From a virus (taxonomy: Duplodnaviria > Heunggongvirae > Uroviricota > Caudoviricetes), in IMG/VR virus record IMGVR_UViG_3300034091_000309: a stretch of 38,660 nucleotides of DNA. One strand, given 5' to 3'. This document shows, piece by piece, positions 10,459 to 35,450 of this stretch. Position numbers and translations under genes: made by a program. The notes beneath the pieces are model-generated. The model saw nothing but the letters and a program-made list of their open reading frames with translations. It had not been told where the DNA came from and did no database searches. Numbering within the stretch: position 1 is the first letter of the stretch; the number at the start of each line of letters is the position of its first letter.

Positions 10459-10532
10459 GAGCGACATGCCCCCGCCCCGGCGGAATCAGCAATGGCTCAA
10501 GAGCGAAATGGCTCTTGGGCCATTTCTGTTTT
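10459..10532 (+). promoter_or_regulatory. RNA switch-like leader, copy 1
   Basis: GAGCGACATGC-hairpin-AATCAGCAATGGCTCAAG-loop-CTTGGGCCATT-TCTGTTTT. Confidence 0.75.
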
Positions 10533-10542
10533 CAGCCAATTT

Positions 10543-10576
10543 CCACCCCACGGACGTGGACCTGTCCGTGGGGACC
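10543..10576 (+). repeat. CCACCCC..GACC..GGGGACC hairpin repeat
   Basis: ccccacggac gtggacct gtccgtgggg. Confidence 0.8.
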
Positions 10577-10594
10577 TCGGAGAAGGAGCATGTC

Positions 10595-10723
10595 ATGGCA
10601 AAACCAAAAGGCATCAAGGTAAACGCGCTGCAGTCCATCCACAACAAGAACGCGAAGAAGAATCTGGAGCGGGTGCACATGCTGGGCAAGCGGCACAGCA
10701 AATCGCACGCCAACAAAGGTTGA
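10595..10723 (+). CDS. Small Lys-rich basic protein (42 aa)
   Basis: SD aaggag; MAKPKGIKVNALQSIHNKNAKKNLERVHMLGKRHSKSHANKG. Confidence 0.7.
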   Translation: MAKPKGIKVNALQSIHNKNAKKNLERVHMLGKRHSKSHANKG

Positions 10724-10749
10724 GCAAATCCGCGTTCCGCGGTTTTGCG

Positions 10750-10820
10750 GTGAATGAGTGAACGAGTGAATCCGCTGCGGCGGACGCATTCACTTTTTCG
10801 CTTCTTCACTTTTTCACTCG
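10750..10820. repeat. Inverted array of GAGTGAA-type heptamers
   Basis: GTGAA units on the left arm, TTCAC units on the right arm, around a ccgctgcggcgg hairpin. Confidence 0.6.
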
Positions 10821-10836
10821 CCACCGACGGAGAGCG

Positions 10837-12978
10837 ATGTATTCGGAGCGCATCATACTCGCCAACCTGGACGAGTTCGCCGCCCGCGAGGGATGGAGGC
10901 CACAGTATCACTCCCTGGGCCAGATCGAGGAGTTCAAGGCCTACATCGACTCGCTCATCAAGATGGAGACCAACACCCGCAGCTCCTGGATTACCCTAGT
11001 CAAGACCATCAGCCAGAGGCGCCAGCAGGAGATCCGGCGCTGGATCGAGAACGAACAGGTCCTGTGCGCCCTGGACTCGAATTACTGGGAGAGCCGGTAC
11101 GCCTACGTCTGCGACGAGAAGGGCCATATCTTCAAATTCTGCAACCGCCAGTCGCAGGCGGTCTACGACTCGATCATTGCCGATTTCGACCTGAAACAGG
11201 TCTCGATCGAACTGCTGATCCTGAAGGCCCGGCAGGTGGGCATCACCACCAAAACGGCCCTGAAGTTCATCCACCGGCTGATGTTCATTCCCCATACCCA
11301 GGCCGTGATGGCCTCGGTGCAGGCCGACAAGTCGGAGCTGATCGGGCGCATTTTGGATACCGCCTACAACCGCTGCCCGTGGTGGCTGGTGCCGCGGAAG
11401 ATGCCCAAGGGCGCCTTTGACAATGGATCAATCCTCTCTATCCAGTCGGGAATGCAGGCCACGGGCATCGCCCAGGGGTGGACCCCGACCTGCATCCACA
11501 TATCCGAGTTGGCCGACATTCCCAAGCCCAAAAAAGTCATCGAAGAGGGGCTGCTGCCGGCCACGCACAGCAGCCGCAATCTCTTCATGGTCTTCGAAGG
11601 CACCGGAGGCGGGAATACCGGATGGCTGGCCGACAGTTGGCGCGACGCCAAAAAGAACTGGCCGAAGGGCCTGACGCGGCTCTGTCCGATCTTTATCCCC
11701 TGGCCGATGGCCACCGATCTCTATCCGGAGGCGGATTGGCTGCGCAAATGCCCGATTCCGGCAGGCTGGAGGCCGCTGGAAGAGACGCGCAAGCATGTTC
11801 TCCGCTGCGAACTGTATATCCGCAATACTCCCTACCTGGCCCAGATCGCCGGCGCGCATTGGCGGATGCCGCTGGAGCAGCAATGGTTCTGGGAGTTCGG
11901 GTACCGGGAGGCCTGCGAAAAGCATACGCAGAAGATCTGGTTCGCGCGGATGCCGGCGGACGACTTTGAGGCGCTGACCGGGGTGCATGACAGCGTCTTC
12001 GACCTGGAAACCATGCGAGAGATCGAAGAGCACGTATACGAGGTGCAAGGCGAGGGCGTGAAAAGAAGAAAGCCGGTGCAGACCTACGCCATCACCGGAG
12101 ATTCGATTGACGACGGCTTCGATCCGGAGGAGAGCGAGATCGATTGCGAACGGCCGCGCATCCGTGTGCATTGGGAATCGCACCGCGGGCAACGATATGA
12201 CTGGGTTTTGGTGCCGTTGAAGCCGGTAAACGAGGAGGTGGAGACGGACAGCTTTGACAAGCTGCTGGTCTTCGAGGAACCGCAGCCGGGCTACGACTAC
12301 AGTTGCGGCATCGATACGGCTGACGGGCTGGGCAAGGAGGACGAGGACCGGACCTGCGCCTCCATGACGCGGAACCGCTTTGGAGACGAGTTTGATTACC
12401 AAGTGGCCGAGCTTACCTCGAACCGGATCAACTCCGCCCAGATCGTGGGTTTTGCGGCCTGTATGGCCGCTTGGTACGGGGAGAATACGCGCGATCCGCG
12501 GGGGGTAAAGTTCTGCGTGGAGCAAATCAACCGGCCTGGCGATACCTGCCAGCACCAATTGAAGCTGATGGGCTTCCATTACCATCACAAGCCGCGGCGG
12601 TACGACAGCAAAAAAATCAGGGACGACAGCACCAAAAAAGAAGGCTGGTATTCGAATGTCTGGAGTGTGCCGATCCTGATGACGCGCTTCACGGAGGCGG
12701 TGAACGGCGGGTGGTACCGGCCGGCGTCGAAGTGGCTGATCGAGGAGCTGAAGATGCTGGAACGTCATGCGGCGGCAGGGAGGATCTCCAAGATGGAGCA
12801 CCGCAGCGGACAGCACGATGACCGGGTGCGGGCGGCGGCGCAATCGTTCTTCACCGCGCACGATTTCGACATTCTGGCCGAGCGGGCGCAAAAGCGGTAT
12901 GCGCTGCCAGCAGAAAAGAATCCGCCGCTGAGCCGGGCGGTGTGCTCGATGAGCGCGGTGAGTGTGGGGGAGTGGTAA
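10837..12978 (+). CDS. terL: Terminase large subunit
   Basis: Walker A-like ILKARQVGITT, HISELA, C-terminal RNase H-like GIDTADG and HDDRV; position upstream of the portal. Confidence 0.9.
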   Translation: MYSERIILANLDEFAAREGWRPQYHSLGQIEEFKAYIDSLIKMETNTRSSWITLVKTISQRRQQEIRRWIENEQVLCALDSNYWESRYAYVCDEKGHIFKFCNRQSQAVYDSIIADFDLKQVSIELLILKARQVGITTKTALKFIHRLMFIPHTQAVMASVQADKSELIGRILDTAYNRCPWWLVPRKMPKGAFDNGSILSIQSGMQATGIAQGWTPTCIHISELADIPKPKKVIEEGLLPATHSSRNLFMVFEGTGGGNTGWLADSWRDAKKNWPKGLTRLCPIFIPWPMATDLYPEADWLRKCPIPAGWRPLEETRKHVLRCELYIRNTPYLAQIAGAHWRMPLEQQWFWEFGYREACEKHTQKIWFARMPADDFEALTGVHDSVFDLETMREIEEHVYEVQGEGVKRRKPVQTYAITGDSIDDGFDPEESEIDCERPRIRVHWESHRGQRYDWVLVPLKPVNEEVETDSFDKLLVFEEPQPGYDYSCGIDTADGLGKEDEDRTCASMTRNRFGDEFDYQVAELTSNRINSAQIVGFAACMAAWYGENTRDPRGVKFCVEQINRPGDTCQHQLKLMGFHYHHKPRRYDSKKIRDDSTKKEGWYSNVWSVPILMTRFTEAVNGGWYRPASKWLIEELKMLERHAAAGRISKMEHRSGQHDDRVRAAAQSFFTAHDFDILAERAQKRYALPAEKNPPLSRAVCSMSAVSVGEW

Positions 12979-13028
12979 TGGGCAGGGAACGAGTGAAAAA
13001 GTGAACGAGTAAATCGGGAGAAGAGGCG

Positions 13029-13673
13029 ATGCGATTTTTTGATTTGCAGAGGCGGAATGACAATCGGGAGCGAAGCGTTACCTTGCGGACGCCATGGCTA
13101 ACCGTTGTTTTCGATTGGGGAACCACGCTCTGCGTCCAGGAAAAATCGGATGAACCGGTTTTTAGGCGTTTATGGGGACCGGTCTTTTATTTTGGGTGGG
13201 ATGCGGCAGGCCGGCTGGATCGGCTGCGCTGTTTTGATTGTTTTCTTTTTTCAACTCTGGATGCCCAGAGCAAGAAAAACGAAAGATTCTGGAACGGTCT
13301 TCGCCGTGATTTCAAAAGGAAGATGCGGGAGATCGATAAGGGCCAACGGCAGCACCCGGCGATGATGACACCGATGGAAAGGCATCAGGCAACCGCCAAA
13401 GTGGCGCAAAAGTTGAAATGGAGCAAGACGTTCGTGGAGATGATGACAACGCCGATGGCGCTACGCGCGTTGGAAAGCGGCAGTGAAGCCAAGAGCGAAT
13501 GCGGTGATCGGCTGTGTCTAGGCGCAGGATTTTTTACGCACATAGATGAATCGGGAAAAGTAACCACGATCAGGATGGACGAAAAATGCTTGACGCGGGA
13601 GGATTTTCAACGGATGCGATTGGAATGGAAGCATGAGCAGGTGATCGAGCAACTTCCAGCGCCGGAGGCGTGA
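13029..13673 (+). CDS. Hypothetical protein
   Basis: 214 aa, SD gagg, coupled to the next gene. Confidence 0.65.
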   Translation: MRFFDLQRRNDNRERSVTLRTPWLTVVFDWGTTLCVQEKSDEPVFRRLWGPVFYFGWDAAGRLDRLRCFDCFLFSTLDAQSKKNERFWNGLRRDFKRKMREIDKGQRQHPAMMTPMERHQATAKVAQKLKWSKTFVEMMTTPMALRALESGSEAKSECGDRLCLGAGFFTHIDESGKVTTIRMDEKCLTREDFQRMRLEWKHEQVIEQLPAPEA

Positions 13674-14062
13674 TGAGCGCGCAACTGAGAACAAAGATCG
13701 TGTACTGGCGGAATCCGCTCAACCGGGAGTTGCGGATGGGACTTCCCGAGCAGTATCCGGCGCCATGGGGATGGGAAAAGATCATCTGTGGCTCCGCCCT
13801 GGCGGCGGAGTATTGGTCGAATGAAATGCGCAAGCAGGAGAGGATTCGCGAGGAGGTCGAGGAAGAGCAGCGGGAGGCGATCGAAGGACCGATGCGGAAG
13901 CAGCTCCGGCTGCACATGCTGAACCTGATGGCCAATGCGCGGAACCAAGTCAACCGGGATTTTCTGGCGCGGCACCTGGAACTCTACGACAAACGGGGGG
14001 ACAGGACGAAGACGAAGCGGGAGAGTTATCTGCACGCGGAGGCGTATGAGCATGGTCATTGA
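13670..14062 (+). CDS. Hypothetical protein
   Basis: 130 aa, charged helical composition. Confidence 0.75.
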   Translation: MMSAQLRTKIVYWRNPLNRELRMGLPEQYPAPWGWEKIICGSALAAEYWSNEMRKQERIREEVEEEQREAIEGPMRKQLRLHMLNLMANARNQVNRDFLARHLELYDKRGDRTKTKRESYLHAEAYEHGH

Positions 14063-14141
14063 ACAGTGAAGAGTGTGGGTGAACAGTGCGAGTGCGCGGC
14101 AAACTGACGACTCACACTCACACGATTCACTATTTTTGGCG

Positions 14142-14170
14142 TAGACGCACAAGCATTTTTGCTCTATGGT
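14142..14170 (+). promoter_or_regulatory. Candidate sigma70 promoter for the portal gene
   Basis: TAGACG-N17-TATGGT. Confidence 0.5.
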
Positions 14171-14247
14171 GCGCATAATGTTGGGCTTTTGCGGCGAAGC
14201 CGCTTTCGCCGGTGCGGCCAGCACTACCGAGGAGAAAGCGATGATGC

Positions 14248-16341: not shown

Positions 16342-16390
16342 GCGGCAAAGCCGCGCACGACAGGCAATAGCTAAGCCCCGGAGGGCAACT

Positions 16391-16630
16391 ATGGCGGTGA
16401 AGATCAAAGTGCAAAAGAATTACTACCTGACCGAAGTGAGCATGGAACTGCCTACCGACTTGGGGGCGCTGGACGATCTGCTCAAAGCGACCAGGGCGAC
16501 AGGCAGGATTGTGGGATTGTACAACATGGGCGGTGTCATGGGGGTCAACGTGGAGCAGCGGACAAAGATTCCCGAGGGCGTGGATGACCAGGTGCGGGCC
16601 CTGATCGGCATCGGCACAAAAATTTTGTGA
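16391..16630 (+). CDS. Hypothetical protein
   Basis: 79 aa, SD ggaggg. Confidence 0.7.
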   Translation: MAVKIKVQKNYYLTEVSMELPTDLGALDDLLKATRATGRIVGLYNMGGVMGVNVEQRTKIPEGVDDQVRALIGIGTKIL

Positions 16631-16638
16631 AATAGGAC

Positions 16639-16667
16639 TTGACATGAAAAAAGATACGGCCTACAGG
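16639..16667 (+). promoter_or_regulatory. Candidate promoter with atypical -10
   Basis: TTGACA-N17-TACAGG(T). Confidence 0.45.
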
Positions 16668-16683
16668 TAGTAAAGAACTGCGT

Positions 16684-16758
16684 GAGCAACATGCAACCCC
16701 TCCTTGGGGAAGACGCAATGGCTCAAGACCGAGATGGCCTTGGGCCATTTCCATTTTC
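16684..16758 (+). promoter_or_regulatory. RNA switch-like leader, copy 2
   Basis: GAGCAACATGC-CCCC/GGGG-AAGACGCAATGGCTCAAG-loop-CTTGGGCCATT-TCCATTTT. Confidence 0.75.
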
Positions 16759-16779
16759 AGCAACCAAGGAGAAGAGATC

Positions 16780-16884
16780 ATGGCACATCGCAAGCGTGTA
16801 AGCGCAAAGGGCGCCCATCTGAAGAAGGCTCGCGGCAAGCGTGGCCGCAAGCGCGGCGGCAAGAAGACGGCAGTCAAGGCCTAA
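16780..16884 (+). CDS. 34-aa protamine-like basic peptide (below the ORF-track cutoff)
   Basis: SD aaggag; MAHRKRVSAKGAHLKKARGKRGRKRGGKKTAVKA, 15 K/R and no acidic residue. Confidence 0.75.
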   Translation: MAHRKRVSAKGAHLKKARGKRGRKRGGKKTAVKA

Positions 16885-16912
16885 CCAACCCAACGGCATG
16901 AACCCGCCGTTC

Positions 16913-16949
16913 CCGCCCCAAGAATCGAAGACCAATTCTTGGGGACCCC
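16913..16949 (+). repeat. Hairpin repeat copy
   Basis: ccccaagaat cgaagacca attcttgggg acccc. Confidence 0.7.
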
Positions 16950-16995
16950 GATAGTTGGGAACCCCGACGACGGGTTCTCCGACAGAGAGAACCAA

Positions 16996-17292
16996 ATGGC
17001 TACGACTCCCCAACCAACTCCAGACCAGCAGGGCCAGGGCGCCGCTCCTCCGATGGACAGCGGCGCTCCCCCGCAGGGTCCCTCTCCGCAGGGCGGCGCT
17101 TCGCAGGCTCCCGCCAATCCCCTCCAAATGCTGCTCGCGCGCTGGTACCAGACGGCTAAGCAGATGGCTGCCTCAGACCCGCGGATAGCTGCCGGCATGG
17201 AGAAGGTGGCGCAGGGAATTCAGGAGGCGCAGACAGCGCTGGTCAGTCCTCCACAACCAACCCCTATCGGGCAGCAACCGCAATACAGTTAG
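16996..17292 (+). CDS. Pro/Gln-rich hypothetical head-assembly-region protein
   Basis: ATG at 16996; disordered ends with a central helix. Confidence 0.7.
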   Translation: MATTPQPTPDQQGQGAAPPMDSGAPPQGPSPQGGASQAPANPLQMLLARWYQTAKQMAASDPRIAAGMEKVAQGIQEAQTALVSPPQPTPIGQQPQYS

Positions 17293-17344
17293 CAGCCGAC
17301 AGCGGACAGTGAACAGTTAAAAGATTCCGGGAGAAGAAGAGAGT

Positions 17345-18361: not shown

Positions 18362-18362
18362 G

Positions 18363-18394
18363 CCACCCCACGGACATGGACCTGTGCGTGGGGG
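18363..18394 (+). repeat. Hairpin repeat copy, followed by AGGGA(A/T)T x3
   Basis: ccaccccacggacatggacctgtgcgtggggg. Confidence 0.75.
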
Positions 18395-18465
18395 CTCCGG
18401 CGTAAGAGCAGGGATTAGGGAATAGGGAATAAAAAGCCCGATTTCCCGAAGTACAGATTTGACGT

Positions 18466-18535
18466 GAGCGACACGCCCCTCCTGGCGGAGAAGAAGCGAT
18501 GGCTCAAGACCGATGGCCTTGGGCCATCGCCATTA
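18466..18535 (+). promoter_or_regulatory. RNA switch-like leader, copy 3
   Basis: GAGCGACACGC-CTCC/GGAG-AAGAAGCGATGGCTCAAG-loop-CTTGGGCCATCGC. Confidence 0.75.
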
Positions 18536-18536
18536 G

Positions 18537-18571
18537 CACCCCAAAAACGAGGACCTGTTTTCGGGGACCCC
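18537..18571 (+). repeat. Hairpin repeat copy
   Basis: cacccc aaaaac gaggacct gttttc ggggaccc. Confidence 0.65.
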
Positions 18572-18598
18572 GTTACTTCAAAGCCAAGAAGGTGAACC

Positions 18599-19831
18599 GT
18601 GCCAACCGATCCGCTTTACAACGAAATAGACGCGAGTAACTTGGAGAGCGTCCGCAAGAACGTGGTCTTCAACAACCTGTTCGTGGACACTCCCTTCCAG
18701 GCCAAGCTCCGCAAAGCCGGCGTATGGGATGAGTTCCTGGGCGGCGCGGGCATGATGGAAGGCATCCTTTACGGGCGCACGCAGGGAGCCGCGGTGAATC
18801 CTGGCCAGACGGTGACCGTAACCCGCCAGCAAATCAACACCGGCATCAAGTTTCTGCCCAAGGCCTACGCCACTTGGTATCCGCTGGACGACTGGGAGAT
18901 GGACGACGGCTCTGGAACGGGCGGGGTCATCAACTCCGGCCCGACGCGGATCGTGGACGAGTACCAGCTCTTCATGGAGTGCATGGTGATGACCATGAAC
19001 ACCATGCAGGAGATGGATTCCTTCCGTCATGGACAGGCATCCTCGTCGACGGTTCTCGACAACCGTATCAAGACCATCAATGGTCTGGATGAGGCGCTGA
19101 CCAATGGCATCGATCCCTCAGTGTACGGCAACATCTACATCAACTACGGTGGTCAGGCCCGCAATGGCAACATCGGCGTTGCGTTGAACACGACGCCGAT
19201 CTACCTGGGCACATCCAGCGGGGCACCCGGCCAGATCGATTTTGCGGCCTTGATGCAGCTCTGGAGCCAGTGCAAGGTAGCGGGCGGGAATCCGACGCTG
19301 GGGATCACTAACGTCTTTGGCTTCAAGGCCGTGGCCGTGGCGCTGGATGCGCAGCGGCGGGATATCTCGAACACCAAGCATGACATCAAGTGGGACGGGC
19401 TGAACTTCAACGGCGTGGACATCTACGCCGATCCGCTGGCACCCTCGGCGCAGGCGGCGAACTTCATCGCGCTCGCCCCGGCGCAGGGTGCGGCCGGCAA
19501 CACGAACCTGACGGACGGCGTGGGATCGAGTACCCAGACGGTGGCTTTCACCACTCCGCAGTTCACCAAGTCCGGCGCCAACGTGACGGTTTCACCCACG
19601 GGCTCCAACCTGCCCTCGACCACCACCATTCAACCCAGCGAGGTTCTCTACTTCCTGGAGCCGGAGAGTTTCAAGATCCGGCCCACGAACAAGAAGGGCT
19701 GGAACTTTGGTCTGCGGCGCGCGCCGATGCCGAACAACGTCTCGATCGACGCTTTGTTCATGCGGCTGGGCACGAATTTGTATAACTGCCAGCCGCGGCA
19801 CAACTGCTACGCATTCGGCTTCACGGCGTAA
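18599..19831 (+). CDS. Major capsid protein
   Basis: 410 aa after the scaffold; NLESVRKNVVFNNLFVDTPFQAKL N-terminus, FNGVDIYAD and YFLEPESF resemble HK97-fold podovirus-type coats. Confidence 0.8.
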   Translation: MPTDPLYNEIDASNLESVRKNVVFNNLFVDTPFQAKLRKAGVWDEFLGGAGMMEGILYGRTQGAAVNPGQTVTVTRQQINTGIKFLPKAYATWYPLDDWEMDDGSGTGGVINSGPTRIVDEYQLFMECMVMTMNTMQEMDSFRHGQASSSTVLDNRIKTINGLDEALTNGIDPSVYGNIYINYGGQARNGNIGVALNTTPIYLGTSSGAPGQIDFAALMQLWSQCKVAGGNPTLGITNVFGFKAVAVALDAQRRDISNTKHDIKWDGLNFNGVDIYADPLAPSAQAANFIALAPAQGAAGNTNLTDGVGSSTQTVAFTTPQFTKSGANVTVSPTGSNLPSTTTIQPSEVLYFLEPESFKIRPTNKKGWNFGLRRAPMPNNVSIDALFMRLGTNLYNCQPRHNCYAFGFTA

Positions 19832-19834
19832 GGT

Positions 19835-19867
19835 CACCCCACGGACTTGGACCTGTCCGTGAGGACC
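19835..19867 (+). repeat. Hairpin repeat copy, followed by CAGCTTT/TAGCTAA heptamers
   Basis: caccccacggacttggacctgtccgtgaggacc. Confidence 0.75.
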
Positions 19868-19935
19868 GCGACGGCGTAAGAACAGCTTTCAGCTTTTAGC
19901 TAACAGCTAAAAGTTGCACTTCAAGGAGAAGGACG

Positions 19936-20763: not shown

Positions 20764-20814
20764 GACTCTCCGAGCGGCGGCGAGTCGCCGCCCGGAACGC
20801 AGCAAGGAGCGGCA

Positions 20815-22029
20815 ATGAATCTCACACTTCTCAAGGGCTATCCGGATTTCATCGGCAAGCGGCAGGCATGGGCCGGTTACGGCAATGGCCCGTCGTCTTA
20901 CGTGGCCGGCGGTGATCCGATTGTGCTTCCGCAGTATGGCGGCTACATCGATGCCGTCTTTGGCCCAGTGTACTCGGTGAGCGGCAACTATCTGGTCACG
21001 CCGATTCCTTCGGGCGCAGGACCGCGGCAGACATGGAAGCTGAAGTGGAGCCCGGCGCAGCTTGCCGGCACGCCGCTTGTTCTGGGTCCCACGCAGGCTG
21101 TGACCAAGACGCAATGGGCCGAGAGCGGTGTCACCGGCACGATTACCGCCGCCAATACGCTCTCTCCCGGCCAATTCGTGATGCTGAACAGTTTCACTTC
21201 CAGCCACCTGATCTTCATGAACGGGCAGATTGTGGAAGTGGCCAGCGCGACTTCATCCTCCTTTACTTTCTTGTGGGGTCCGGCGGGCGCGAACGGCACG
21301 GTGGCGTTCTCCAATGTTGCACAAGCTAACGACGCGGGAACCTTCCAAGTTCTGCAGAGCGCGAACGGCCTTCCGGTGCAGCTCTCGACCCTGACGGGAA
21401 CTTCCAATGTGGCGACCATTACCGGTTGCGCCGTCACAGGCGGTCTTCTGACGGTTACCGCCACCAACAACTTTTCGGTGGGAAACTTCGTTTACATTGC
21501 TGGGACGGCGGCCAACGAAGTGACGCTGGGCATTTGGGGCCAGATTCTCAGCGCAACCAGCAGCGCCTTCACCATGGCCACGCAATGCAAGAACGTGAGC
21601 AACGCCAGCGACAGCGGCACGGCTACGCTGATGGTAACAGGCAACAATCAGCCGATCAGCACGGGAACTCCAGTTCCGGTCTACGGCTCAACCATTGCCG
21701 CATCGATCGTATCCACTTCTGCCGCGGGTACGATTACCCTGCCAGCCTATCAGAACTGGAATGTGAACAACCTGTTCATCGTTCAAGGGTTGACATTTGG
21801 CGGGACAATTGACGGTTCGGTGGCCCAGGTCACGAGCAGCAGTTTGAGCAATGTGCTTATCAATGCAACAACTTTTATTGGTGTCGCCGTGATCACAGGC
21901 ACATTGGGATTCGGCACCGCCGCGCTGCTTACCGTCGGAGGACCCAGCACGACGTATGGAGAGATGCCTGCGGGAACGAATCTATCTGGGGAGCAGGTGC
22001 AGATCGGGGGATTTGGAGGGCAGTTCTAA
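20815..22029 (+). CDS. Virion structural protein with three inserted beta-sandwich repeats
   Basis: Repeats LSPGQFVMLNSF, FSVGNFVYIAGT and WNVNNLFIVQGL. Confidence 0.65.
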   Translation: MNLTLLKGYPDFIGKRQAWAGYGNGPSSYVAGGDPIVLPQYGGYIDAVFGPVYSVSGNYLVTPIPSGAGPRQTWKLKWSPAQLAGTPLVLGPTQAVTKTQWAESGVTGTITAANTLSPGQFVMLNSFTSSHLIFMNGQIVEVASATSSSFTFLWGPAGANGTVAFSNVAQANDAGTFQVLQSANGLPVQLSTLTGTSNVATITGCAVTGGLLTVTATNNFSVGNFVYIAGTAANEVTLGIWGQILSATSSAFTMATQCKNVSNASDSGTATLMVTGNNQPISTGTPVPVYGSTIAASIVSTSAAGTITLPAYQNWNVNNLFIVQGLTFGGTIDGSVAQVTSSSLSNVLINATTFIGVAVITGTLGFGTAALLTVGGPSTTYGEMPAGTNLSGEQVQIGGFGGQF

Positions 22030-22121
22030 CAGTAGGGGACAGTGAACAGCCGACAGTGAACAGTAAAAGCCCGGAACTGACCACTGTCCAATGGCGTCTT
22101 TCTCCCGGAAGACAAACCACT

Positions 22122-22156
22122 ACGCCTCTTGCGGGGAAACTCGCAGGAGGCGTTTT
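22122..22156 (+). terminator. Strong GAAA-tetraloop hairpin, possible terminator or part of a larger RNA
   Basis: acgcctcttgcggg-gaaa-ctcgcaggaggcgt-ttt, 14 bp including G-U pairs. Confidence 0.6.
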
Positions 22157-22226
22157 GGTTAGGGGATTGATGGTCCGGGCAATCGCGCCTTCGGCGCAGA
22201 AAGATTTTGAAGCAAGGTGGTGGCAG

Positions 22227-23681: not shown

Positions 23682-23682
23682 A

Positions 23683-23718: not shown

Positions 23719-23746
23719 GGCACGGAGTAGGGAAGGGGCAGAGGCA

Positions 23747-25327: not shown

Positions 25328-25338
25328 GGAGAAGCGAA

Positions 25339-26145: not shown

Positions 26146-26155
26146 GGAGAATGCG

Positions 26156-28491: not shown

Positions 28492-28537
28492 ATCAGGGTA
28501 GCCAAGGTTGGAGAGAACTGGGACCAGGGAGCAAGAG

Positions 28538-28609
28538 ATGGCGGCACGCGGCAACAACAACATTCAACTGGATAGTATCGCCAAGCTGGCGGCGGAGGTG
28601 CCGGCATGA
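28538..28609 (+). pseudogene. 5' fragment of a paralogue of the 31889 gene
   Basis: MAARGNNNIQLDSIAKLAAEVPA* versus MTVRRSNGVQLDNIAKLATEVAQ. Confidence 0.8.
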
Positions 28610-28824
28610 CGAAGAAACTCGGCCAAAAGAAGAGTGCACAGAAAAGCTCCGGCGGGGACGGAGCAACGGCTTCTCCATCCTCTTACCACCATGGCGGCAA
28701 GGTGCGCAGGACGGGCAAAGCGAAGGTCAGGAAGGGGGAAAGAATCCTGACTGCGAAACAGGACCGTGAGTACAGAAAGATCAGCAAAAGAAAGCCCGCG
28801 ACGAGAAAGAGGTATGCGAAGTGA
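28606..28824 (+). CDS. Basic protein, paralogue 2
   Basis: Near-identical to the C-terminal 72 aa of 26156; many differences are synonymous. Confidence 0.8.
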   Translation: MTKKLGQKKSAQKSSGGDGATASPSSYHHGGKVRRTGKAKVRKGERILTAKQDREYRKISKRKPATRKRYAK

Positions 28825-31820
28825 GAGGCCTGATTCTCATTTTGGCGATGGCGATCTTCCCGATCAGCGCACTGGCGCAGACGGCGGCGGCGAACGGTTA
28901 CTGCACTCTGGGCGGAGCACCGGCGGTGACATCAGGACTGTCCTCTTCAAACTATCTACAGGGCATCGTTCCGCTGTGCACGGTGACGGTGTATCTGACT
29001 GGCACACAGACCAAAGCGACGATCTACGCGGACTCGAACAATACGCCTCTGACAAATGGATTTACGGCCAACATAGACGGTTCATGGATGTTCTATGTGG
29101 CCAAGGGACCGGGATACGACATTGTGATGAGCGGCGGAACGCCACTACCTATCTCACCCTATTGGCCGAAAACAATCACAGATGTAATTACAGGCGGGGT
29201 GGAGGGCATCGGGATAGTAACCAATTTTTCAGCGGGCAATCTATCGCCTCTCTTTACAACTTCGGTGACTAATTCTTCCTCCACTCCGGCGTTATCATTT
29301 TCTCTTTCCTCTACCGGCAATTTCAACTTGTTTGGAAACTTCAGCGGATTGCCCGCTGTTCCTTCCTGGTGGACTCTGGCGGCAGGATCGAACATCGTGC
29401 TTACGCCTTCTGGCGGCGATGTTTTGACGATCTCATCAGGCGTGGCCGCAGGATTGAATCAGATGGTGCCCGCTCCGACAGTGGACAGCTATGGCTATGT
29501 GATTCTCTATCCTACTGCCTATAGTATTTCAAATTCTGGTTATTGCACAGGTGCGTCTACAAATACCAGCGGAGCGATAACAGAGTTCATCGGCACAGGC
29601 TTAGGCGCAGCTTGTGCGATCACTTACACTGGATTTAGCCTCCCCCCCGGCCTGCTTCCAGCAAACATCAAAGCGGTCTATGGGTTTACAATAGCGGGGT
29701 ATCAGGGCGACGATATTTATAAAAACAATCAAATAAAAATGACTTGCTCAGATGGCACATACGGAGGCATTTTATTTAACAACAGCCATATTGATTTTCC
29801 CATGAATCCTTATAGCTTGCAGATATACAATTCATCGCAAGCGCCGCCTTCTTTCAATTATGCAAATGCGTACTGCTCGGCCAGCCTTGTCGATTACGGG
29901 TCTGATGGATACCCCTCGCTCTATCAGATAAATTCTGTAGGTTTGATTGTCTATGGGGCTTTTACGACTCCGGCGCAGTCTGGATTACAGGTTGTTTTGC
30001 CACTCAGTTATAATGCCACGCTCGATACGCTTGGCCTGGGCTTAGTTCCTAGCTGGCTTTGGAGTCCAGGAGATTCTGGAACATCAGGTGGAACGGCTGA
30101 TGCCTATACTTTGACTTATCTGCAGCCAACACCGGGATACTCCCTTGGGTTGCAGGAAGTGTTCGTGCCGGTTGCGAATAATGCGACTACGACGCCGACG
30201 CTGAATGTGGATGGACTTGGAGCGGTGACGATCACCAAACTGGGCGCAACGGCTTTGGCGGCGAATGATCTAACCACGACGGCTCTTGCAGTGGTGATTT
30301 ACGACGGCACCCACTGGGAATTGCAAAACCCGCAAACGCAAAGCGGCGCGGGAACCGCCATCAGCATTAACGGAACATCCGTTAGTACGGCCAACATCAA
30401 TTCCACTGTGCCGAATGTCGATTCTGGTTATACTGCGGCAACGATTAAGCGCGACCCGACTACCGGCGGCGTCATCGCGGAATTTCCTACAGGCACAGGC
30501 AGCGGAGTTTCCAGCATCAACAGCACACCGGGAGCCTTTACATTCGCAGGAGCAGGGGTATCCTGCTCAGGAACTACTTGTTCTTTCAGCGCTGGCGGCG
30601 GCGGTGGTAGCAGTATCGACATATTGTCTCCTGGAAAACCGAGCGGCACGACATTAGGTACTTACCAGAAAGATGGCACAGTTATCGCAAGCAGCACATT
30701 GACTCTTCTGAGTTACGTTCCTATAACTATCACCGCATGGTCAATCAATGGCTCTAATGTAGCGACTTTTACCGCTAGTAATACCATGAATGCTGGACAA
30801 CAATATCTGCTCTCCGGATTTACGACCGGCTCTTTCTTTAATGGGCAGACAATCACAGTCTTAGCAGCGGGGCTTTCAAGTTCGCAATTTGAGGCCAATT
30901 TCACGCACGCTTCCGGCTCTGCCAGCGAATCGGGAACCGCCACCCCTCTTCCCGGCTATGTGAGCCGTGTCTGGGTGGCATTGCAGGGTGCTGATCCATC
31001 GAATTGCACAGTAAAAATCTTCATCAACGGTTCTGGAACAGCTTCTATTTCCGTGCCGCTGCAAAACTTCTTTTTGGCGACGTATGCTTATCAAAATGCA
31101 CAAGTCCCTTCTGCGCTTTCCACTTATTTCACGAGCTACAACCAGACAACGGGCACTGGCTCAACATATTCTTTCACACTTCCCATTCCCTTTACGACAG
31201 GCATACAGGTAGCCATCGTCAACACTACGGCTTCGACGCTTACCGACTGGTATATGGTGGACTACCACATGGGAGTGCCGAACACTTGGCCATATACGGA
31301 AGTTCTTCATGTGGATGTGAACACGGACGTAACAGGAATTACCGCGAATACAGTAACGACACTGACGAATTATACGGGCGGCAATCCAGGACGATTTGTA
31401 GGTATGTGGTGGCTGGAGGATAGTGCTCCCGGCTCCCTAAATCCTGTGGGAGCATCCATGGAAGGGGCATTTGCACTGTACCTCGATGGATCTGCAAGTC
31501 CAAACATTACATCATCCGGTACTGAGGACTGGTTCGGCTACGGATATTATTTTGGCGGGAACGGACTTCCTCAAACCTACTCATCGGCTCCTGGGGGACA
31601 GATTCCCGGTGGGTGGATGGACGCCAGCGGGCAGGTAACGATTATGAATATGGGCACCACAAACGGTAAAACTGACTCGGCTGTGCGCTATCACCTCATC
31701 GACCCGATTTATTTCAACTCCGGCCTGAAAATGACTTGGGCCTGCGGCAACACTTCCTATGTCTCATTCACCGGGACATGCACACTTTGGAGCACGGTGT
31801 TTTACTACACGCAGCAATAA
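28821..31820 (+). CDS. Receptor-binding/fibre-like protein 2 with C-terminal DUF2961/GH172-like domain and signal peptide
   Basis: PGYVSRVW, VKIFING, VPLQNFF, LPIPFTTGIQVAIVN, GRFVG, EGAFALYLDG, GTEDWFG, RYHLIDPIYF; tail-fibre domain ADAYTL..TPTLNVDGLG..IYDGTHW. Confidence 0.8.
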   Translation: MRGLILILAMAIFPISALAQTAAANGYCTLGGAPAVTSGLSSSNYLQGIVPLCTVTVYLTGTQTKATIYADSNNTPLTNGFTANIDGSWMFYVAKGPGYDIVMSGGTPLPISPYWPKTITDVITGGVEGIGIVTNFSAGNLSPLFTTSVTNSSSTPALSFSLSSTGNFNLFGNFSGLPAVPSWWTLAAGSNIVLTPSGGDVLTISSGVAAGLNQMVPAPTVDSYGYVILYPTAYSISNSGYCTGASTNTSGAITEFIGTGLGAACAITYTGFSLPPGLLPANIKAVYGFTIAGYQGDDIYKNNQIKMTCSDGTYGGILFNNSHIDFPMNPYSLQIYNSSQAPPSFNYANAYCSASLVDYGSDGYPSLYQINSVGLIVYGAFTTPAQSGLQVVLPLSYNATLDTLGLGLVPSWLWSPGDSGTSGGTADAYTLTYLQPTPGYSLGLQEVFVPVANNATTTPTLNVDGLGAVTITKLGATALAANDLTTTALAVVIYDGTHWELQNPQTQSGAGTAISINGTSVSTANINSTVPNVDSGYTAATIKRDPTTGGVIAEFPTGTGSGVSSINSTPGAFTFAGAGVSCSGTTCSFSAGGGGGSSIDILSPGKPSGTTLGTYQKDGTVIASSTLTLLSYVPITITAWSINGSNVATFTASNTMNAGQQYLLSGFTTGSFFNGQTITVLAAGLSSSQFEANFTHASGSASESGTATPLPGYVSRVWVALQGADPSNCTVKIFINGSGTASISVPLQNFFLATYAYQNAQVPSALSTYFTSYNQTTGTGSTYSFTLPIPFTTGIQVAIVNTTASTLTDWYMVDYHMGVPNTWPYTEVLHVDVNTDVTGITANTVTTLTNYTGGNPGRFVGMWWLEDSAPGSLNPVGASMEGAFALYLDGSASPNITSSGTEDWFGYGYYFGGNGLPQTYSSAPGGQIPGGWMDASGQVTIMNMGTTNGKTDSAVRYHLIDPIYFNSGLKMTWACGNTSYVSFTGTCTLWSTVFYYTQQ

Positions 31821-31888
31821 TTGGCAACGGGTTTTGCTGTCCCGAAGATCAGCGAGGGTGCTGGAGCAATAGGCCAAGGGGTACGAAG

Positions 31889-32227
31889 ATGACGGTACGT
31901 CGCAGCAACGGAGTTCAACTGGACAATATCGCCAAGCTGGCGACGGAGGTGGCCCAGGCGGCGCGGTTGCGCTCGGAGCAGGATGCTCTGATGCTGACCG
32001 AGCACGGCAAGATGCTGGGCGATATCCGGGAGACTCTGGCGCGGATCGACGGGCGGACCGAGGCTTACGGGCAGAACCTGACGCGCCTGGAAAAGAAAAT
32101 CGAGACGCAGCAGGATCAGATTGAGGTCCATAGCGAGGACATTAGCAAGATTAAGGGCTTCGGCGCCGCGATAGCTTTTCTGCTTTCGGTCGGGGAGGCC
32201 GCCATCGCCATTTTCAGAGGGAAGTAA
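31889..32227 (+). CDS. Coiled-coil protein with C-terminal TM segment (lysis-cassette type)
   Basis: IRETLARIDGR..LEKKIE coiled coil followed by GFGAAIAFLLSVGEAAIAIF. Confidence 0.7.
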   Translation: MTVRRSNGVQLDNIAKLATEVAQAARLRSEQDALMLTEHGKMLGDIRETLARIDGRTEAYGQNLTRLEKKIETQQDQIEVHSEDISKIKGFGAAIAFLLSVGEAAIAIFRGK

Positions 32228-32240
32228 GAAAGGACCGATC

Positions 32241-32378
32241 ATGAGTTGGCTGCGCAGACTTCGCATCTGGATCTTCGGTTGTCCGGAGTGCGGAGGCAGC
32301 GGCCGGCTCAATACCATTGCCGGAAGTTTTCCGTGCGTGTATTGCAACCGGCAGACAAAGAAAGAGGAATGGAGATGA
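32241..32378 (+). CDS. 45-aa Zn-finger peptide (below the ORF-track cutoff)
   Basis: SD aagga; MSWLRRLRIWIFGCPECGGSGRLNTIAGSFPCVYCNRQTKKEEWR; stop overlaps the next ATG. Confidence 0.7.
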   Translation: MSWLRRLRIWIFGCPECGGSGRLNTIAGSFPCVYCNRQTKKEEWR

Positions 32379-33304
32379 ACACGATGACAAACTGGTTCAA
32401 CAGGTTCACGGCCACGACACACTTCACCTTCGCGTCCGTCCTGCTGCTGGCTGGGGCGCTGTACGAGGCCTATTGGAATGTGCCGCAAGTGCAGACCTTG
32501 CTGCAGCACATCTACTCCGAAGTGCCGGGATGGGCGCAGTTGCTGATCGCCGCGGCTGTGGGCTGGTACGCTTGGTACCGGAACGGCGAGAAGCCAACAG
32601 TCAACCCCACGGATGATAGACCTGTCGCCGGGAACCCCGAGTCTGTGGGAACCCCGGCAGTTGCAAGCGCAACCGCGAAAAAGACAATTGCAATTCTCGC
32701 CATAGCGCTCTGTTTGAGCGCGGTGACGGCAAGAGCACAGACTCCAGCTCCCGCACCGGAGCCAGCGAGTCCTGCAGGGTTCGTTCCCGCGTCAGACGTG
32801 ATGGTGATCCGATGCAACGGGAGTTCGGGAGCCGGCAACCTGACGACCGAGGCTTACGACCTGTTCGACTACGGAGGAACGAAATCGAATCGGGTATTCG
32901 CTCAAGGCGTCGAACTCTCGGCGCCGAGCTGCGGCTTATCGGTCTATGGGGCCGGCCTTCTCTGGCAGCCGGATATCTCCGCGCTTTTGAAGAAGACGAA
33001 TATCCCGACGGGCAATCTGCTTTTCTTCCTGGATGGTTCTGCGGGAAACGGCATTCCGGCCACCGGGAGCAACCGTGTGTCGGCTGTGATCGGCGGAGGC
33101 TTTAAGTACATTCTTTCGGACAACCTGACCTGGAACACAATCAGGTTTGAAGAGGTGTTCTTCGGAAACCAACGGTATCCGGCGGTTTCTACCGGGCTCT
33201 CCGCTTACTTTGGAGGAACTCCAGCTTCCGCCGCCGCTTCTCCGAATGTAAAACGCTCTCTGATGAAGCGCCTGGCTTCCGCTGCGGCGCATGGAACACA
33301 CTAA
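32375..33304 (+). CDS. Holin-like 2-TM domain fused to an internal signal peptide and beta-barrel-like domain
   Basis: TM1 FTFASVLLLAGALY, TM2 WAQLLIAAAVGWY, then KKTIAILAIALCLSAVTARA|Q and alternating-hydrophobic strands ending STGLSAYF. Confidence 0.6.
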   Translation: MNTMTNWFNRFTATTHFTFASVLLLAGALYEAYWNVPQVQTLLQHIYSEVPGWAQLLIAAAVGWYAWYRNGEKPTVNPTDDRPVAGNPESVGTPAVASATAKKTIAILAIALCLSAVTARAQTPAPAPEPASPAGFVPASDVMVIRCNGSSGAGNLTTEAYDLFDYGGTKSNRVFAQGVELSAPSCGLSVYGAGLLWQPDISALLKKTNIPTGNLLFFLDGSAGNGIPATGSNRVSAVIGGGFKYILSDNLTWNTIRFEEVFFGNQRYPAVSTGLSAYFGGTPASAAASPNVKRSLMKRLASAAAHGTH

Positions 33305-33407
33305 GCGACTCTTTTGCGCGGCGGTCCCTTGAGGAAAGCGGGGATAGAAGAAGCCGAATGGCACATGCCCCCTGTTGGGCGGGAATCCCAACCAGCCGCG
33401 CAACTTG

Positions 33408-33443
33408 CCACCCCAACGGCCAACGACCAGCCGTTGGGGACCT
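33408..33443 (+). repeat. Hairpin repeat copy
   Basis: ccaccccaacggc caacgacca gccgttggggacc. Confidence 0.75.
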
Positions 33444-33467
33444 CGGATTTGAGAGTGGAGAACGAAG

Positions 33468-33656
33468 ATGCCCAGCGAAGAGATCATGGAGCGGTTCAGA
33501 CAGCATAAGTTGCATTCGGGCCGGGGCGGGAAGATCGTGCGCAAGAAGAAACAGGCCAAGGCGATCCTGCTGAGCTATCTGCGCAAGGAAGGAAAGATCG
33601 GTTCCAGAAAAAAGAACAAGACTGGGAACCGGAAAAGAGTTAGCATCAGGAAGTAG
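33468..33656 (+). CDS. Small basic protein, DUF6496-like
   Basis: MERFRQHKLHSGRGGKIVRKKKQAKAILLSYLRK resembles KLHSG..KQAIAIALS proteins. Confidence 0.7.
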   Translation: MPSEEIMERFRQHKLHSGRGGKIVRKKKQAKAILLSYLRKEGKIGSRKKNKTGNRKRVSIRK

Positions 33657-33671
33657 CAGCGCAATTGACAA

Positions 33672-33746
33672 GAGCGACATGCCACCCCTTCCTGGGGAAG
33701 AAGCAATGGCTCAAGACCGGCAACGGCTTGGGCCATTGCCGTTTCT
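33672..33746 (+). promoter_or_regulatory. RNA switch-like leader, copy 4
   Basis: GAGCGACATGC-CCCC/GGGG-AAGAAGCAATGGCTCAAG-loop-CTTGGGCCATTGC. Confidence 0.75.
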
Positions 33747-33762
33747 GACCAAGGAGTGAGCG

Positions 33763-34008
33763 ATGGCAAAGTTGACGACGAAAAAACGCAAGAAGCTGCC
33801 GGCGAAAAGTTTCGCGCTAAAGGGCCGGCGCTATCCGATCGAGGACAAGGCGCACGCCAGAAACGCTCTGGCGCGCGTGGCGCAACATGGGACGGCCGCC
33901 GAGAAGGCCGAAGTGCGGCGCAAGGTGCATGGGAAATTCCCCGATATCGGCGCGGGAAAAGCGAAGAAAAAGGGCGCACGGAAACGGATTGCGGGAAAGC
34001 GGAGCTAA
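33763..34008 (+). CDS. Small basic phage protein (DUF6582-like)
   Basis: KLPAKSFALKGRRYPIEDKAHARNALARVAQ; SD aaggag. Confidence 0.75.
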   Translation: MAKLTTKKRKKLPAKSFALKGRRYPIEDKAHARNALARVAQHGTAAEKAEVRRKVHGKFPDIGAGKAKKKGARKRIAGKRS

Positions 34009-34044
34009 TGGTTTCTAGCTAAAAGTTGTTCTTCGAAGGGACAC

Positions 34045-35361
34045 ATGGCTCTTTACGGCTGGCTTCAATTCGCGACTGCACGCCAGCAACTAGCGCAACG
34101 GCTGGCCGACAGCGGGAATGTGTACTGGACCGACCAAGAAAACGGCCTCTATATCCAGAAGGCGCTGCGCATCTTCAATGCGCTGACCTATACCTGGAAG
34201 ACGGATTTTGTTTATAACACGGGGAACCTGTGGAACTCGCTGGGACTCCTGGCGGAGTCTCCGCGGCTGCGCACACTGACCGACACCAACTCCTACACCA
34301 TGATGGAGTACCACCTGCTTGAGCCGCCCAGCGGAGGGACGTGGACGGGGACCAGCCAGTTCACCATTTCCGACTTTTCTCAGGCTTTGCAGCGGCACCG
34401 GGACGAGATGCTGCAAGTCTCGAATTGCAACCAATCGCTCATGACCGGTATTGCGCTCACGCCGAATACCCGGCGGACGACGTTGCCGGATACAGTGATC
34501 GACGTGGCGCGGGTGCGGTATCTGCCGGTGACGGGGAATCCGGTGACGCTCTACCGTGACGACACCGTGGCGCAGGAGTTTTACGAGGCCGGTTTCTGGC
34601 AGTCGCCGGGCGCGACGCCGCAAACCTTCATGCTTTCATCGGAACCCCCGCTAAGTTGGGACGTGGACATTCCTCCGGCCCAGCCGGGAAGCTACGAGGC
34701 GGTGGTTCTGCAATCGGGAGCGGCCTTCTCGCCGCCCACGGCAACGCTGCTGGGGATTCCCGATGACTTTGCTTGGGTGGCGGAGTGGGGAGCGATGGCG
34801 GATCTGTTGGGCAGGGAATCGGAGGCTACGGACCGGGAAAGGGCGGCTTACTGTCTGCGGCGGTACCAGGATGGATTGAACCTGCTGCTGAAAACCCCCT
34901 GGATCATGCTGGGGAAGGTGAACGGTCAAGCGGTGAGCGTGGACTCGATCATGGCCACGGACCGCTACATGCCGGAATGGGACTCGATGCCAACGAGTTT
35001 TGGGCCGGTGGTGGTGATCGGCGGGGTGGATTTTCTGGCGGCGCCGGTGGGGGCCGGAATCGGGGTAACCGTGTTGGGCAACGCTCCGGTGCCGGTTCTC
35101 AATACGGATTATGTGCAGGTCTCGCGCAGCGACTGGGATGCGGTTTTGGATTGCGCGCAGTCGCTGGCTTGCTTCAAGATGGGGGGAGCGGAGTTTCAGC
35201 AGGCGCTGGAGTTGGAATCGCGGTTTGTGCAGGCCTGCGCGGCGGAGAATACGCGGCTAAAGAGCATGGGGTCGTTCGCGGATATTCTGGTGCAGCGCGG
35301 GCAGGAGCAGGATAGAGCGCAGAACAGGTACAACACGGCAAACCAAAAGAAACAGCAGTAA
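34045..35361 (+). CDS. Putative adaptor/tail tubular protein A-like
   Basis: 438 aa; YWTDQENGLYIQKA N-terminus; directly precedes the nozzle-like gene. Confidence 0.55.
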   Translation: MALYGWLQFATARQQLAQRLADSGNVYWTDQENGLYIQKALRIFNALTYTWKTDFVYNTGNLWNSLGLLAESPRLRTLTDTNSYTMMEYHLLEPPSGGTWTGTSQFTISDFSQALQRHRDEMLQVSNCNQSLMTGIALTPNTRRTTLPDTVIDVARVRYLPVTGNPVTLYRDDTVAQEFYEAGFWQSPGATPQTFMLSSEPPLSWDVDIPPAQPGSYEAVVLQSGAAFSPPTATLLGIPDDFAWVAEWGAMADLLGRESEATDRERAAYCLRRYQDGLNLLLKTPWIMLGKVNGQAVSVDSIMATDRYMPEWDSMPTSFGPVVVIGGVDFLAAPVGAGIGVTVLGNAPVPVLNTDYVQVSRSDWDAVLDCAQSLACFKMGGAEFQQALELESRFVQACAAENTRLKSMGSFADILVQRGQEQDRAQNRYNTANQKKQQ

Positions 35362-35375
35362 ACTAAGAGAGAATC

Positions 35376-35450
35376 GAGCGACGCGCCCCCGCCCCTGCGG
35401 ACCAAGCAACGGCTCAAGACCCGAAACGGTTCTTGGGCCGTTTTCATTTC
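35376..35450 (+). promoter_or_regulatory. RNA switch-like leader, copy 5
   Basis: GAGCGACGCGC-CCGC/GCGG-ACCAAGCAACGGCTCAAG-loop-CTTGGGCCGTT-TTCATTT. Confidence 0.75.

Follow-up and report, generated by a model that had tools for sequence, protein, structure and literature searches.

The virus contig IMGVR_UViG_3300034091_000309, analysed here as a single stretch of 38,660 nucleotides (the window), contains five plus-strand copies of a folded RNA of about 75 bases, and the question it raises is what such a repeated structure does in front of the genes that follow it. The copies had been noticed in an initial annotation, made from the sequence alone, as a two-state switch of the late region, and all five are found on the plus strand at the positions given there (Table 1). 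The element could alternate between exclusive folds and thereby turn the downstream genes on and off, or it could be a fixed signal, read either in the RNA or in the DNA. This phage and its many relatives carry it before most blocks of virion genes, and comparison with the relatives and modelling of the folds suggest that it is probably an undescribed on/off leader for late genes. In its more specific form, a phage-specific, multi-copy, cis-acting 5' leader with two exclusive folds, which would gate late genes by read-through, by translation start or by both, this reading has in our estimate an even chance of being right.

The core pattern GGCTCAAG-N5-25-CTTGGGCC has exactly five matches in the window, all on the plus strand, the mean in 100 dinucleotide shuffles being 0.00. 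The first strand taken alone, the 11-mer GAGCRACRYGC, is not significant, and its five exact matches are the five copies. The initial annotation recognised no known family, and a cmscan search of the whole window, both strands, against Rfam 15 (E<=1) also gave 0 matches. The source is a very divergent soil Acidobacteriota phage: megablast of the window against the INPHARED phages yielded no near relative, while its capsid-like protein is found in 56 IMG/VR loci at 66-93% identity and, as one prophage-like copy, in an Acidobacteriota metagenome-assembled genome (MAG).

A covariance model (R1) built from 19 sequences gave strong matches in these 56 related loci, on the gene strand only and typically three per 20-kb locus; the minus-strand matches are weak mirror images of the same hairpins. 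The MAG yielded only two matches, both near the capsid-like gene, and a search of 150 other host-family genomes with the model gave no match. A complete relative of 132.7 kb carries seven copies, all on the plus strand and all within 71-104 kb. Overall, the element is present in at least 60 related phage contigs, and the 92 distinct full-length versions collected with nhmmer and then de-duplicated form the alignment (A3) to which the counts below refer. An initial scan of IMG/VR with a 16-base pattern had mostly returned chance matches, only about 20 of 120 loci being real.

From 5' to 3', the element comprises strand S1 (consensus GAGCRACAUGC), a hairpin P2 of 4-6 bp with free sequence, an A-rich linker, and strands S2 (GCAAUGGCUCAAG), S3 (RAAAUGGCC) and S4 (CUUGRGCCAUUUC), followed by a U-rich tail (UAUUU(C/U)). 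S2 can pair with S1, forming the helix P1, or with S4, forming a long hairpin of 13-16 bp; S4, in turn, can pair with S2 or with S3, the latter giving a short hairpin of 9-10 bp with a 3-4-nt loop. Three strands had been described initially, the central one with two mutually exclusive partners. These strands are real, the pairings S1:S2 and S2:S4 share alignment columns 42-51, and the homologues add compensatory changes for both, but a fourth strand, S3, lies inside what had been taken for a loop. Similarly, the small hairpins were quoted correctly for copies 2-5, whereas that of copy 1 is CCGC/GCGG with a 4-nt loop and not a 5-bp one, and the offset U-run is present as a U-rich tail in four copies but not in copy 3. 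The conserved core consists of P1, the linker and a single bulged A, namely A45; this A and the As in the linker are at least 90% conserved. The U tract has the consensus AUUUCUAUUU(C/U), and its UUU at columns 88-90 is conserved at the same level of at least 90%.

A divergent clade (L158-L165) lacks S3 and has a plain hairpin of 10-13 bp. Truncated versions, comprising S1-P2-S2 only and no S3/S4 hairpin, were observed at L127:19782-19866, L154:20814-20896 and L123:16004-16085, each abutting a ribosome site and an ATG. In other versions (L123:14019-14134, L188:1499-1620, L191:1499-1628) P2 carries insertions of 20-40 nt that form extra hairpins; as S1-S4 remain intact in them, P2 is a tolerant insertion point. 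The suggestion that the element is riboswitch-like has gained no clear support; P2 is highly variable and accepts such insertions.

The complementarity of the 5' strand is kept in the homologues. P1 is 98.9% paired, compared with 15-38% in slid controls, and contains 22 double-changed cells, compared with 2.3 in shuffles (0/500), cell-based counts of this kind being inflated by shared ancestry. The P1 haplotypes are CAGAC/GUCAUG, CACGC/GCGAUG, CGCGC/GCAGCG, CGUGC/GUGACG and CGUGC/GCGGCG, and from our reading of them the double changes seem to have arisen in about 6-8 lineages, each compensated independently; two or three cases are exceptions (L069, L160:2992 and half of copy 5). Two compensations had been pointed out in the initial annotation: that of copy 3 is real, S2 GCGAUGG occurring with S1 CACGC and S4 CCAUCGC, and that of copy 5 is real for GCAACGG with S1 CGCGC and S4 CCGUU, although one C.A in P1 is left uncompensated. 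Changes in S1, S2 and S4 together were observed at column 46 (copy 5 and L189) and at column 48 (L167).

P2 shows covariation at all 4 pairs, the upper long stem (S2:S4) is 98.9% paired with 32 double changes, and S3:S4 is 90.8% paired, also with 32. S3 follows S4 more strictly than S2 does (columns 63/81, CG:9 and UG:0; columns 46/81, UG:7 and CG:4). By these comparisons the P2, long-stem and S3:S4 helices are well supported and the P1 helix is supported, and we read them as competing helices maintained by selection. Two further structures were considered and rejected. Extension of the long hairpin into the A-rich linker and the U-run, with 82% pairing, shows covariation no better than shuffles and is not accepted as an established helix, and an H-type pseudoknot S2:S4a + S3:S4b fails on geometry, no loop being left between the two 3' strands.

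Inverted repeats bound as symmetric DNA would covary as well, so that the repeat could in principle be the operator of a protein that binds as a dimer, or a promoter formed by a single-strand hairpin. The promoters of phage N4 are single-strand hairpins with a 3-nt loop, which the short hairpin resembles. However, we observed a strong strand asymmetry: the ratio of G.U to A.C pairs is 96:5 for the long stem, 49:17 for the short one and 27:8 for P2, and the column pair 50/72 is U.G in 57 of the 92 sequences. Thus, the structure belongs to the RNA of the plus-strand transcript. All copies are on the coding strand, moreover, and P2 varies freely in sequence and length, and we consider a DNA-level signal hardly credible.

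The element is also related in sequence to the gene that follows it. The 5' arm, a C-rich stretch made up of the 3' end of S1 and the 5' half of P2, shows complementarity to the Shine-Dalgarno (SD) sequence and start region downstream. Of 79 sequences, 47 give a duplex between arm and ribosome site that is stronger than in shuffles (z < -2). In type-I copies, where CUCCUUGGG faces CCCAAGGAG, there are 9-10 perfect pairs and z ranges from -4 to -6.6. In copy 2, CUCCUUGG of P2 and the ribosome site CCAAGGAG (16764-16771) are complementary, with a duplex energy of -17.7 kcal/mol and z -2.75, and the predicted unpaired probability of the SD of this copy is 0.00 in the free RNA and 0.59 with P1 enforced. 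Compensated arm variants are found in L069, where UUU stands opposite AAA (an extra U opposite an extra A), in L133 and L144 (UCCUUGGAG opposite CUCCAAGGA) and in the divergent clade (CAGACUCC opposite GGAGUCUG). L127, which has no hairpin, shows perfect pairing of the arm with CAAGGGGGGG and with the start codon, at -37.8 kcal/mol (z -3.9). The predicted unpaired probability of the SD averages 0.19 without constraints, 0.20 when the long hairpin is imposed and 0.51 when P1 is imposed, and P1 makes the SD more accessible in 57 of 72 sequences and less accessible in 5. A released 5' arm that masks the ribosome site and start codon, an output not considered in the initial annotation, has in silico support at least equal to that of the termination-based output proposed there.

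The 3' half of P2, the linker and S2 (GGGGA-N7-AUGGC) themselves resemble a ribosome site. We read this part as a putative decoy partner for the arm and not as a real upstream open reading frame (ORF), because the length and frame of the ORFs starting from the AUG in S2 are random: they comprise from 4 to 71 codons, and the three frames are equally used. A leader peptide starting from this AUG was also rejected, the AUG being absent, with compensated changes, in 7 of the 92 sequences.

Taken alone, the 5' domain is predicted to form P1 and P2 in 83 of the 92 sequences, at about -11 kcal/mol. Where S3 is present, the open and closed states of the element lie within about 1-10 kcal/mol of each other (within 1.5 kcal/mol in copy 2). 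The findpath barriers from open to closed, which are heuristic upper bounds, amount to 13-17 kcal/mol with S3 (about 16 in copy 2) and to 3-6 kcal/mol in the clade without S3. Thus, S3 is predicted to make the open form a long-lived trap.

We infer from these observations that the folds may gate expression as follows. In the open fold, the 5' arm would be held by the ribosome-site look-alike, which comprises P2's G-rich 3' half, the A-rich linker and S2 (GCAAUGGCUC), and P1 and P2 would thereby form; in the main clade S4 would be parked on S3, and the real ribosome site would be free. In the closed fold, S4 would take S2 to form the GC-rich hairpin of 13-16 bp followed by the U-rich tract, and the released 5' arm would pair with the real SD and start codon of the next gene. 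Hence the closed fold would stop or weaken expression, by the terminator-like hairpin and the hidden ribosome site, and the open fold would allow it, the output being translation initiation, read-through or both. The choice between the folds could be made during RNA synthesis, if P1/P2 form before the other helices and the open form is then trapped by S3, or by a phage factor binding the conserved P1/P2 module.

Several observations weigh against this reading. In most copies, energy minimisation of the complete element gives the long hairpin, with a mean margin of about 7 kcal/mol, although in this run some state-1 constraints were mis-registered and the energies are unreliable where S3 is shifted in the alignment (e.g. 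in copy 1). In A3, the part of P1 that is strictly exclusive (GAG:CUC and C10:G47) shows no variation; hence the exclusivity of P1 and the long hairpin rests on columns 46 and 48 in few lineages and is supported only thinly. By the number of pairs with a double change, P1 alone is not significant (63/500), to be set beside the inflation of the covariation counts and the upper-bound character of the barriers. Pairing of a C-rich arm with a purine-rich ribosome site is partly an effect of composition. In copies 1, 3 and 5, the leader is separated from the ribosome site by a hairpin resembling repetitive extragenic palindromic (REP) elements. Copy 3 shows little pairing of the arm with the ribosome site (z -0.84); since it also lacks the U-run, either it is degenerate after a REP-like insertion, or the core role of the element lies elsewhere, in factor binding, RNA stability or processing.

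The remaining objections concern termination and candidate factors. Both folds keep a hairpin before the U-rich tract in the main clade, and this tract is interrupted: the "5 T in 8" terminator rule is passed by copy 1 only, and copy 3 reads AUUAGC. Regulated termination is therefore at most a putative output. NusG, the Q families (PF06530, PF03589) and CAT_RBD were found in none of five complete or near-complete relatives, and Sigma70_r2 in one of the five only; a search of the relatives for ANTAR gave nothing usable and is uninformative, its control being silent.

The initial annotation called the S2:S4 fold terminator-like and pointed to an attenuator/antiterminator, in which the S1:S2 fold would be the antiterminated state. 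In this form the idea is not supported: in the main clade, including all five copies of the window, S3:S4 gives the 9-10-bp hairpin directly before the same tract when S1:S2 forms. The idea could be retained, in essence, as a factor-dependent attenuator, an ON switch similar to the ribonucleic antiterminator (RAT), in which a phage RNA-binding protein clamps the bulged P1/P2 and withholds S2 from S4, so that the polymerase reads into the late genes. Indeed, P1 overlaps the 5' half of a GC-rich hairpin with a U-rich tract right after promoters; it is less stable than the hairpin, which displaces it easily in the clade without S3 (3-6 kcal/mol), as in protein-stabilised antiterminators; its bulged A and the linker As are strongly conserved; and the P1/P2 module is kept even where the hairpin is lost. 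However, of the features of an attenuator, the main clade has an alternative helix that shares a strand with the terminator stem (S1:S2 and S2:S4) but not one that leaves no terminator hairpin, which is seen only in the divergent clade without S3: in the main clade S3:S4, itself selected, rebuilds the hairpin when P1 forms. Given also the interrupted U tract, absent from copy 3, and the failure of the searches for CAT_RBD, Q-type and NusG-type proteins, we regard such an attenuator as unlikely.

Of the features of an intrinsic terminator, the GC-rich stem-loop is present, and both the long stem (10491-10524) and the short stem (10505-10526) of copy 1 were called terminator-like in a terminator scan. 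What an ordinary terminator looks like in this phage is seen at 22122-22160, where a canonical-looking one, a 14-bp GC-rich stem (ACGCCTCTTGCGGG/CTCGCAGGAGGCGT) followed by TTTTGG, lies in the intergenic region after 20815-22029. The element could nevertheless be constitutive punctuation, an intrinsic terminator or insulator that leaks and also stabilises mRNAs by capping their ends, with the alternative pairings only tuning its strength and no switching involved. Its occurrence both after promoters and between cistrons (31 of 92 are promoterless and follow a stop codon) and the hairpin before the U-rich tract in both folds agree with this, and in the lysogenic state a temperate phage must keep its late genes insulated, for which terminator T1 of the mobile element Tn916 offers a comparison (PMC11658703). 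Yet punctuation leaves unexplained the covariation of three competing helices, the tracking of S4 by S3, the persistence of S1-P2-S2 without the hairpin and the compensated complementarity of the arm to the ribosome site, and we find it distinctly unlikely.

The position of the element relative to promoters and genes is relevant to two other alternatives. In 61 of the 92 elements a TTGAC[AGT]-N17-TAnAnnT box lies 38-48 nt 5' of S1, so that transcription would likely start about 6-10 nt before S1; the other 31, for example the copy before the capsid gene, have no promoter and are mostly situated 20-35 nt after a stop codon. Downstream of nearly every copy, a ribosome site and a start codon follow at 10-60 nt on the gene strand. 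The box combines a perfect -35 TTGACA with an unusual 7-nt TAnAnnT in place of TATAAT, and the promoter of copy 1 fails a strict sigma-70 scan because its T is at position 7 and not 6. A conserved RAAUC motif is located just 5' of S1, in the promoterless copies too, and might be part of the start-site context, a pause signal or an RNase site.

If the element were an RNA processing site, either an RNase III site of the T7 type or an RNase E site at the AU-rich tail, it would yield uniform, stable late mRNAs from any promoter. The T7 sites R3.8, R4.7, R6.5 and R13 are likewise intergenic and on one strand, some of them directly after promoters, and the many same-strand copies of the element share this layout. 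Their helix is also irregular, with an internal loop, and an AU-rich unpaired stretch follows the stem. However, the helix has only 13-16 bp, the conserved UUU after the stem is lacking in the T7 sites, and P1, P2 and S3 would have no role, and we consider processing improbable.

If, on the other hand, the copies acted beyond the local gene, they could be short trans-acting RNAs, released as terminated leaders of about 90 nt, or nut/put-like loading sites for processive antitermination by an RNA-modified polymerase. A promoter, about 85 nt and a hairpin with Us are the anatomy of a small RNA gene, and the CUCCUU loop resembles an anti-Shine-Dalgarno sequence. Cis-acting antiterminator RNAs are known in mobile elements, such as put of HK022. 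The canT RNA belongs here as well (PMC11658703). Against this, one third of the copies are promoterless, every copy stands 10-60 nt before a start codon on the gene strand, and the overlap between P1 and the hairpin next to it is fixed, which favours local action; we consider any such remote role very improbable.

To return to the on/off leader, a self-contained form of it can be imagined, in which a five-strand toggle (the anti-ribosome-site arm, the decoy, S3, S4 and the real ribosome site) stands before every late operon and couples read-through to translation start. The toggle would be set by folding kinetics, acting as a timer for each transcript, or by one of the tiny arginine/lysine-rich peptides encoded behind it, as lambda N acts on its own leader. 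We hold this extension to be doubtful; if true, phages could run their late genes in a new way that needs no late activator, sigma factor or Q protein. Among candidate factors, Zn_ribbon_Com (PF10122) reached 15 bits, with a cut-off of 22.9, in two divergent relatives only, the Com control being silent, and no ORF with two or more CxxC motifs is present at 5.5-10.5 kb of the window. The sub-threshold Com-like match is to an 81-amino-acid zinc-ribbon protein (CPLCG...CCRCG), encoded in L196:1399-1644 (G005, about 59.6 kb) and in L197, some 6 kb upstream of the first leader copy. A tblastn search found no homologue of it in the window or the related loci searched, a set that does not include L196 and thus has no positive control.

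Several known systems resemble the element in part. Like the trp leader (1:2/2:3/3:4), PyrR-type leaders and the BglG/SacY/LicT RAT leaders, it has overlapping alternative helices in a short leader after a promoter, a bulged 5' helix weaker than the competing hairpin, and several copies per regulon. Unlike in multi-strand attenuators, strands 2 and 4 pair here and not 2 and 3, and in either fold the U tract is preceded by a hairpin; a conserved leader peptide is lacking, CAT_RBD is absent from all five relatives, ribosome-site occlusion is added, and 7-8 copies are spread across the phage late region.

In the Mu Com/mom mRNA and in the lambda N leader, with its nutL/RNase III control, the ribosome site is masked by a helix and becomes accessible in an alternative state. 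The element has this in common with both, together with a small basic protein gene just downstream, and in silico it has a helix that occludes the SD and start codon and is exclusive with an open form, as Com/mom does. It differs in having many copies instead of one, no Com-type zinc ribbon above threshold (none at all in the window) and no similarity to boxA/boxB. A translation-competent local fold that is predicted to form first, and a more stable long-range fold that would then close the start site, recall the kinetically trapped leaders of the MS2 maturation gene (5' untranslated region) and of hok mRNA with its metastable hairpins (reviewed in PMC4615214), S3 raising the predicted barrier to refolding to about 15-17 kcal/mol, whereas here the RNA is the mRNA of a DNA phage, the copies are many, the closed form includes a terminator-like hairpin and the kinetics consist of predicted barriers.

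A strong host-type promoter leading into a hairpin and U tract within about 90 nt, before virion genes, is shared with the lambdoid PR'-tR'/Q system, but the promoters here are many, Q families are absent from the five relatives, and it is an RNA structure that is conserved and not a DNA element binding Q. Finally, the repeated same-strand intergenic irregular hairpins before late genes, some just after promoters, are similar to the RNase III sites of T7; the helix is shorter here, the U-rich tail is conserved, and there are competing 5' and internal strands. Thus, it lacks the full set of defining features of every system compared. We rate it as a new RNA family whose four-to-five-strand design and multi-copy use are unusual and whose logic resembles that of known systems.

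Control of late genes is understood for only a handful of model phages, while in these large soil Acidobacteriota phages one conserved multi-copy RNA stands before packaging, head and tail-adaptor genes. If its folds do gate expression, the element would amount to an RNA device both compact and portable, whose alternative structures are backed by unusually clear comparative evidence; it would be directly testable and potentially useful as a part in synthetic biology.

Table 1. Copies of the element in the window, promoter-like sites and downstream genes
Feature	Coordinates	Strand	Details
Copy 1	10459-10533	+	S1 10459-10469; P2 10472-10475/10480-10483; S2 10489-10501; S3 10505-10513; S4 10514-10526; U-rich tail 10527-10533; covariance model 85.7 bits
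Copy 2	16684-16758	+	S1 16684-16694; P2 16697-16700/16706-16709, loop UCCUU; S2 16715-16727; S3 16731-16739; S4 16739-16751; U-rich tail 16752-16758; 88.5 bits
Copy 3	18466-18530	+	S1 18466-18476; P2 18479-18482/18487-18490; S2 18497-18509; S3 18511-18518; S4 18518-18530; without U-run; 76 bits
Copy 4	33672-33746	+	S1 33672-33682; P2 33685-33688/33694-33697; S2 33703-33715; S3 33718-33727; S4 33727-33741; tail UUUCU 33742-33746; 88.1 bits
Copy 5	35376-35451	+	S1 35376-35386; P2 35389-35392/35397-35400; S2 35406-35418; S3 35423-35431; S4 35432-35445; tail 35446-35451; 82.3 bits
Promoter-like site, copy 1	10416-10445	+	TTGACA 10416-10421, 17-nt spacer, TAGATGT 10439-10445; ends 13 nt before S1
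Promoter-like site, copy 2	16639-16668	+	TTGACA 16639-16644, 17-nt spacer, TACAGGT 16662-16668
ORF after copy 1	10595-10723	+	Basic peptide, 42 amino acids; terminase large subunit next
Terminase large subunit gene	10837-12978
ORF after copy 2	16780-16884	+	Basic peptide, 34 amino acids; ATG 16780
Capsid-like gene after copy 3	18599-19831	+	Start codon GTG at 18599; weak major-head (PHROG) match
ORF after copy 4	33763-34008	+	Basic, 81 amino acids; phrog_16160, weak DUF6582 match; SD 33749-33756
ORF after copy 5	from 35526	+	More than 1045 amino acids

The genes said in the initial annotation to be gated by the element were three basic-peptide genes, the major capsid gene and the nozzle gene. 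The three short reading frames are real; the assignment of the capsid gene relies on the one weak PHROG match, and that of the nozzle gene only on its position after a sub-threshold match to an SU10 adaptor, a gene that follows the 81-amino-acid ORF behind copy 4. Short, highly basic ORFs of the MAKRRKHVSAMKASHL... type, 34-81 amino acids long, are situated directly behind many leader copies and are conserved across the relatives. Except for the 81-amino-acid one, the small basic peptides of the window were assigned to no family in PHROG and Pfam. Arginine/lysine-rich peptides behind an RNA hairpin may, by analogy, recall lambda N.

Upstream of the first copy, the stop codon of the gene at 9364-10419 overlaps the -35 box of the first late promoter; its product belongs to DUF5131 (phage Gp37/Gp68, E 2.6e-62), which is not an antiterminator family. 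The REP-like hairpin mentioned above, about 35 nt long with a GGACC loop and a GGGGACC(CC) tail, occurs at about 10546-10577, 18545-18575 and 35455-35487, and also 3' of the capsid-like gene, at 19838-19868.

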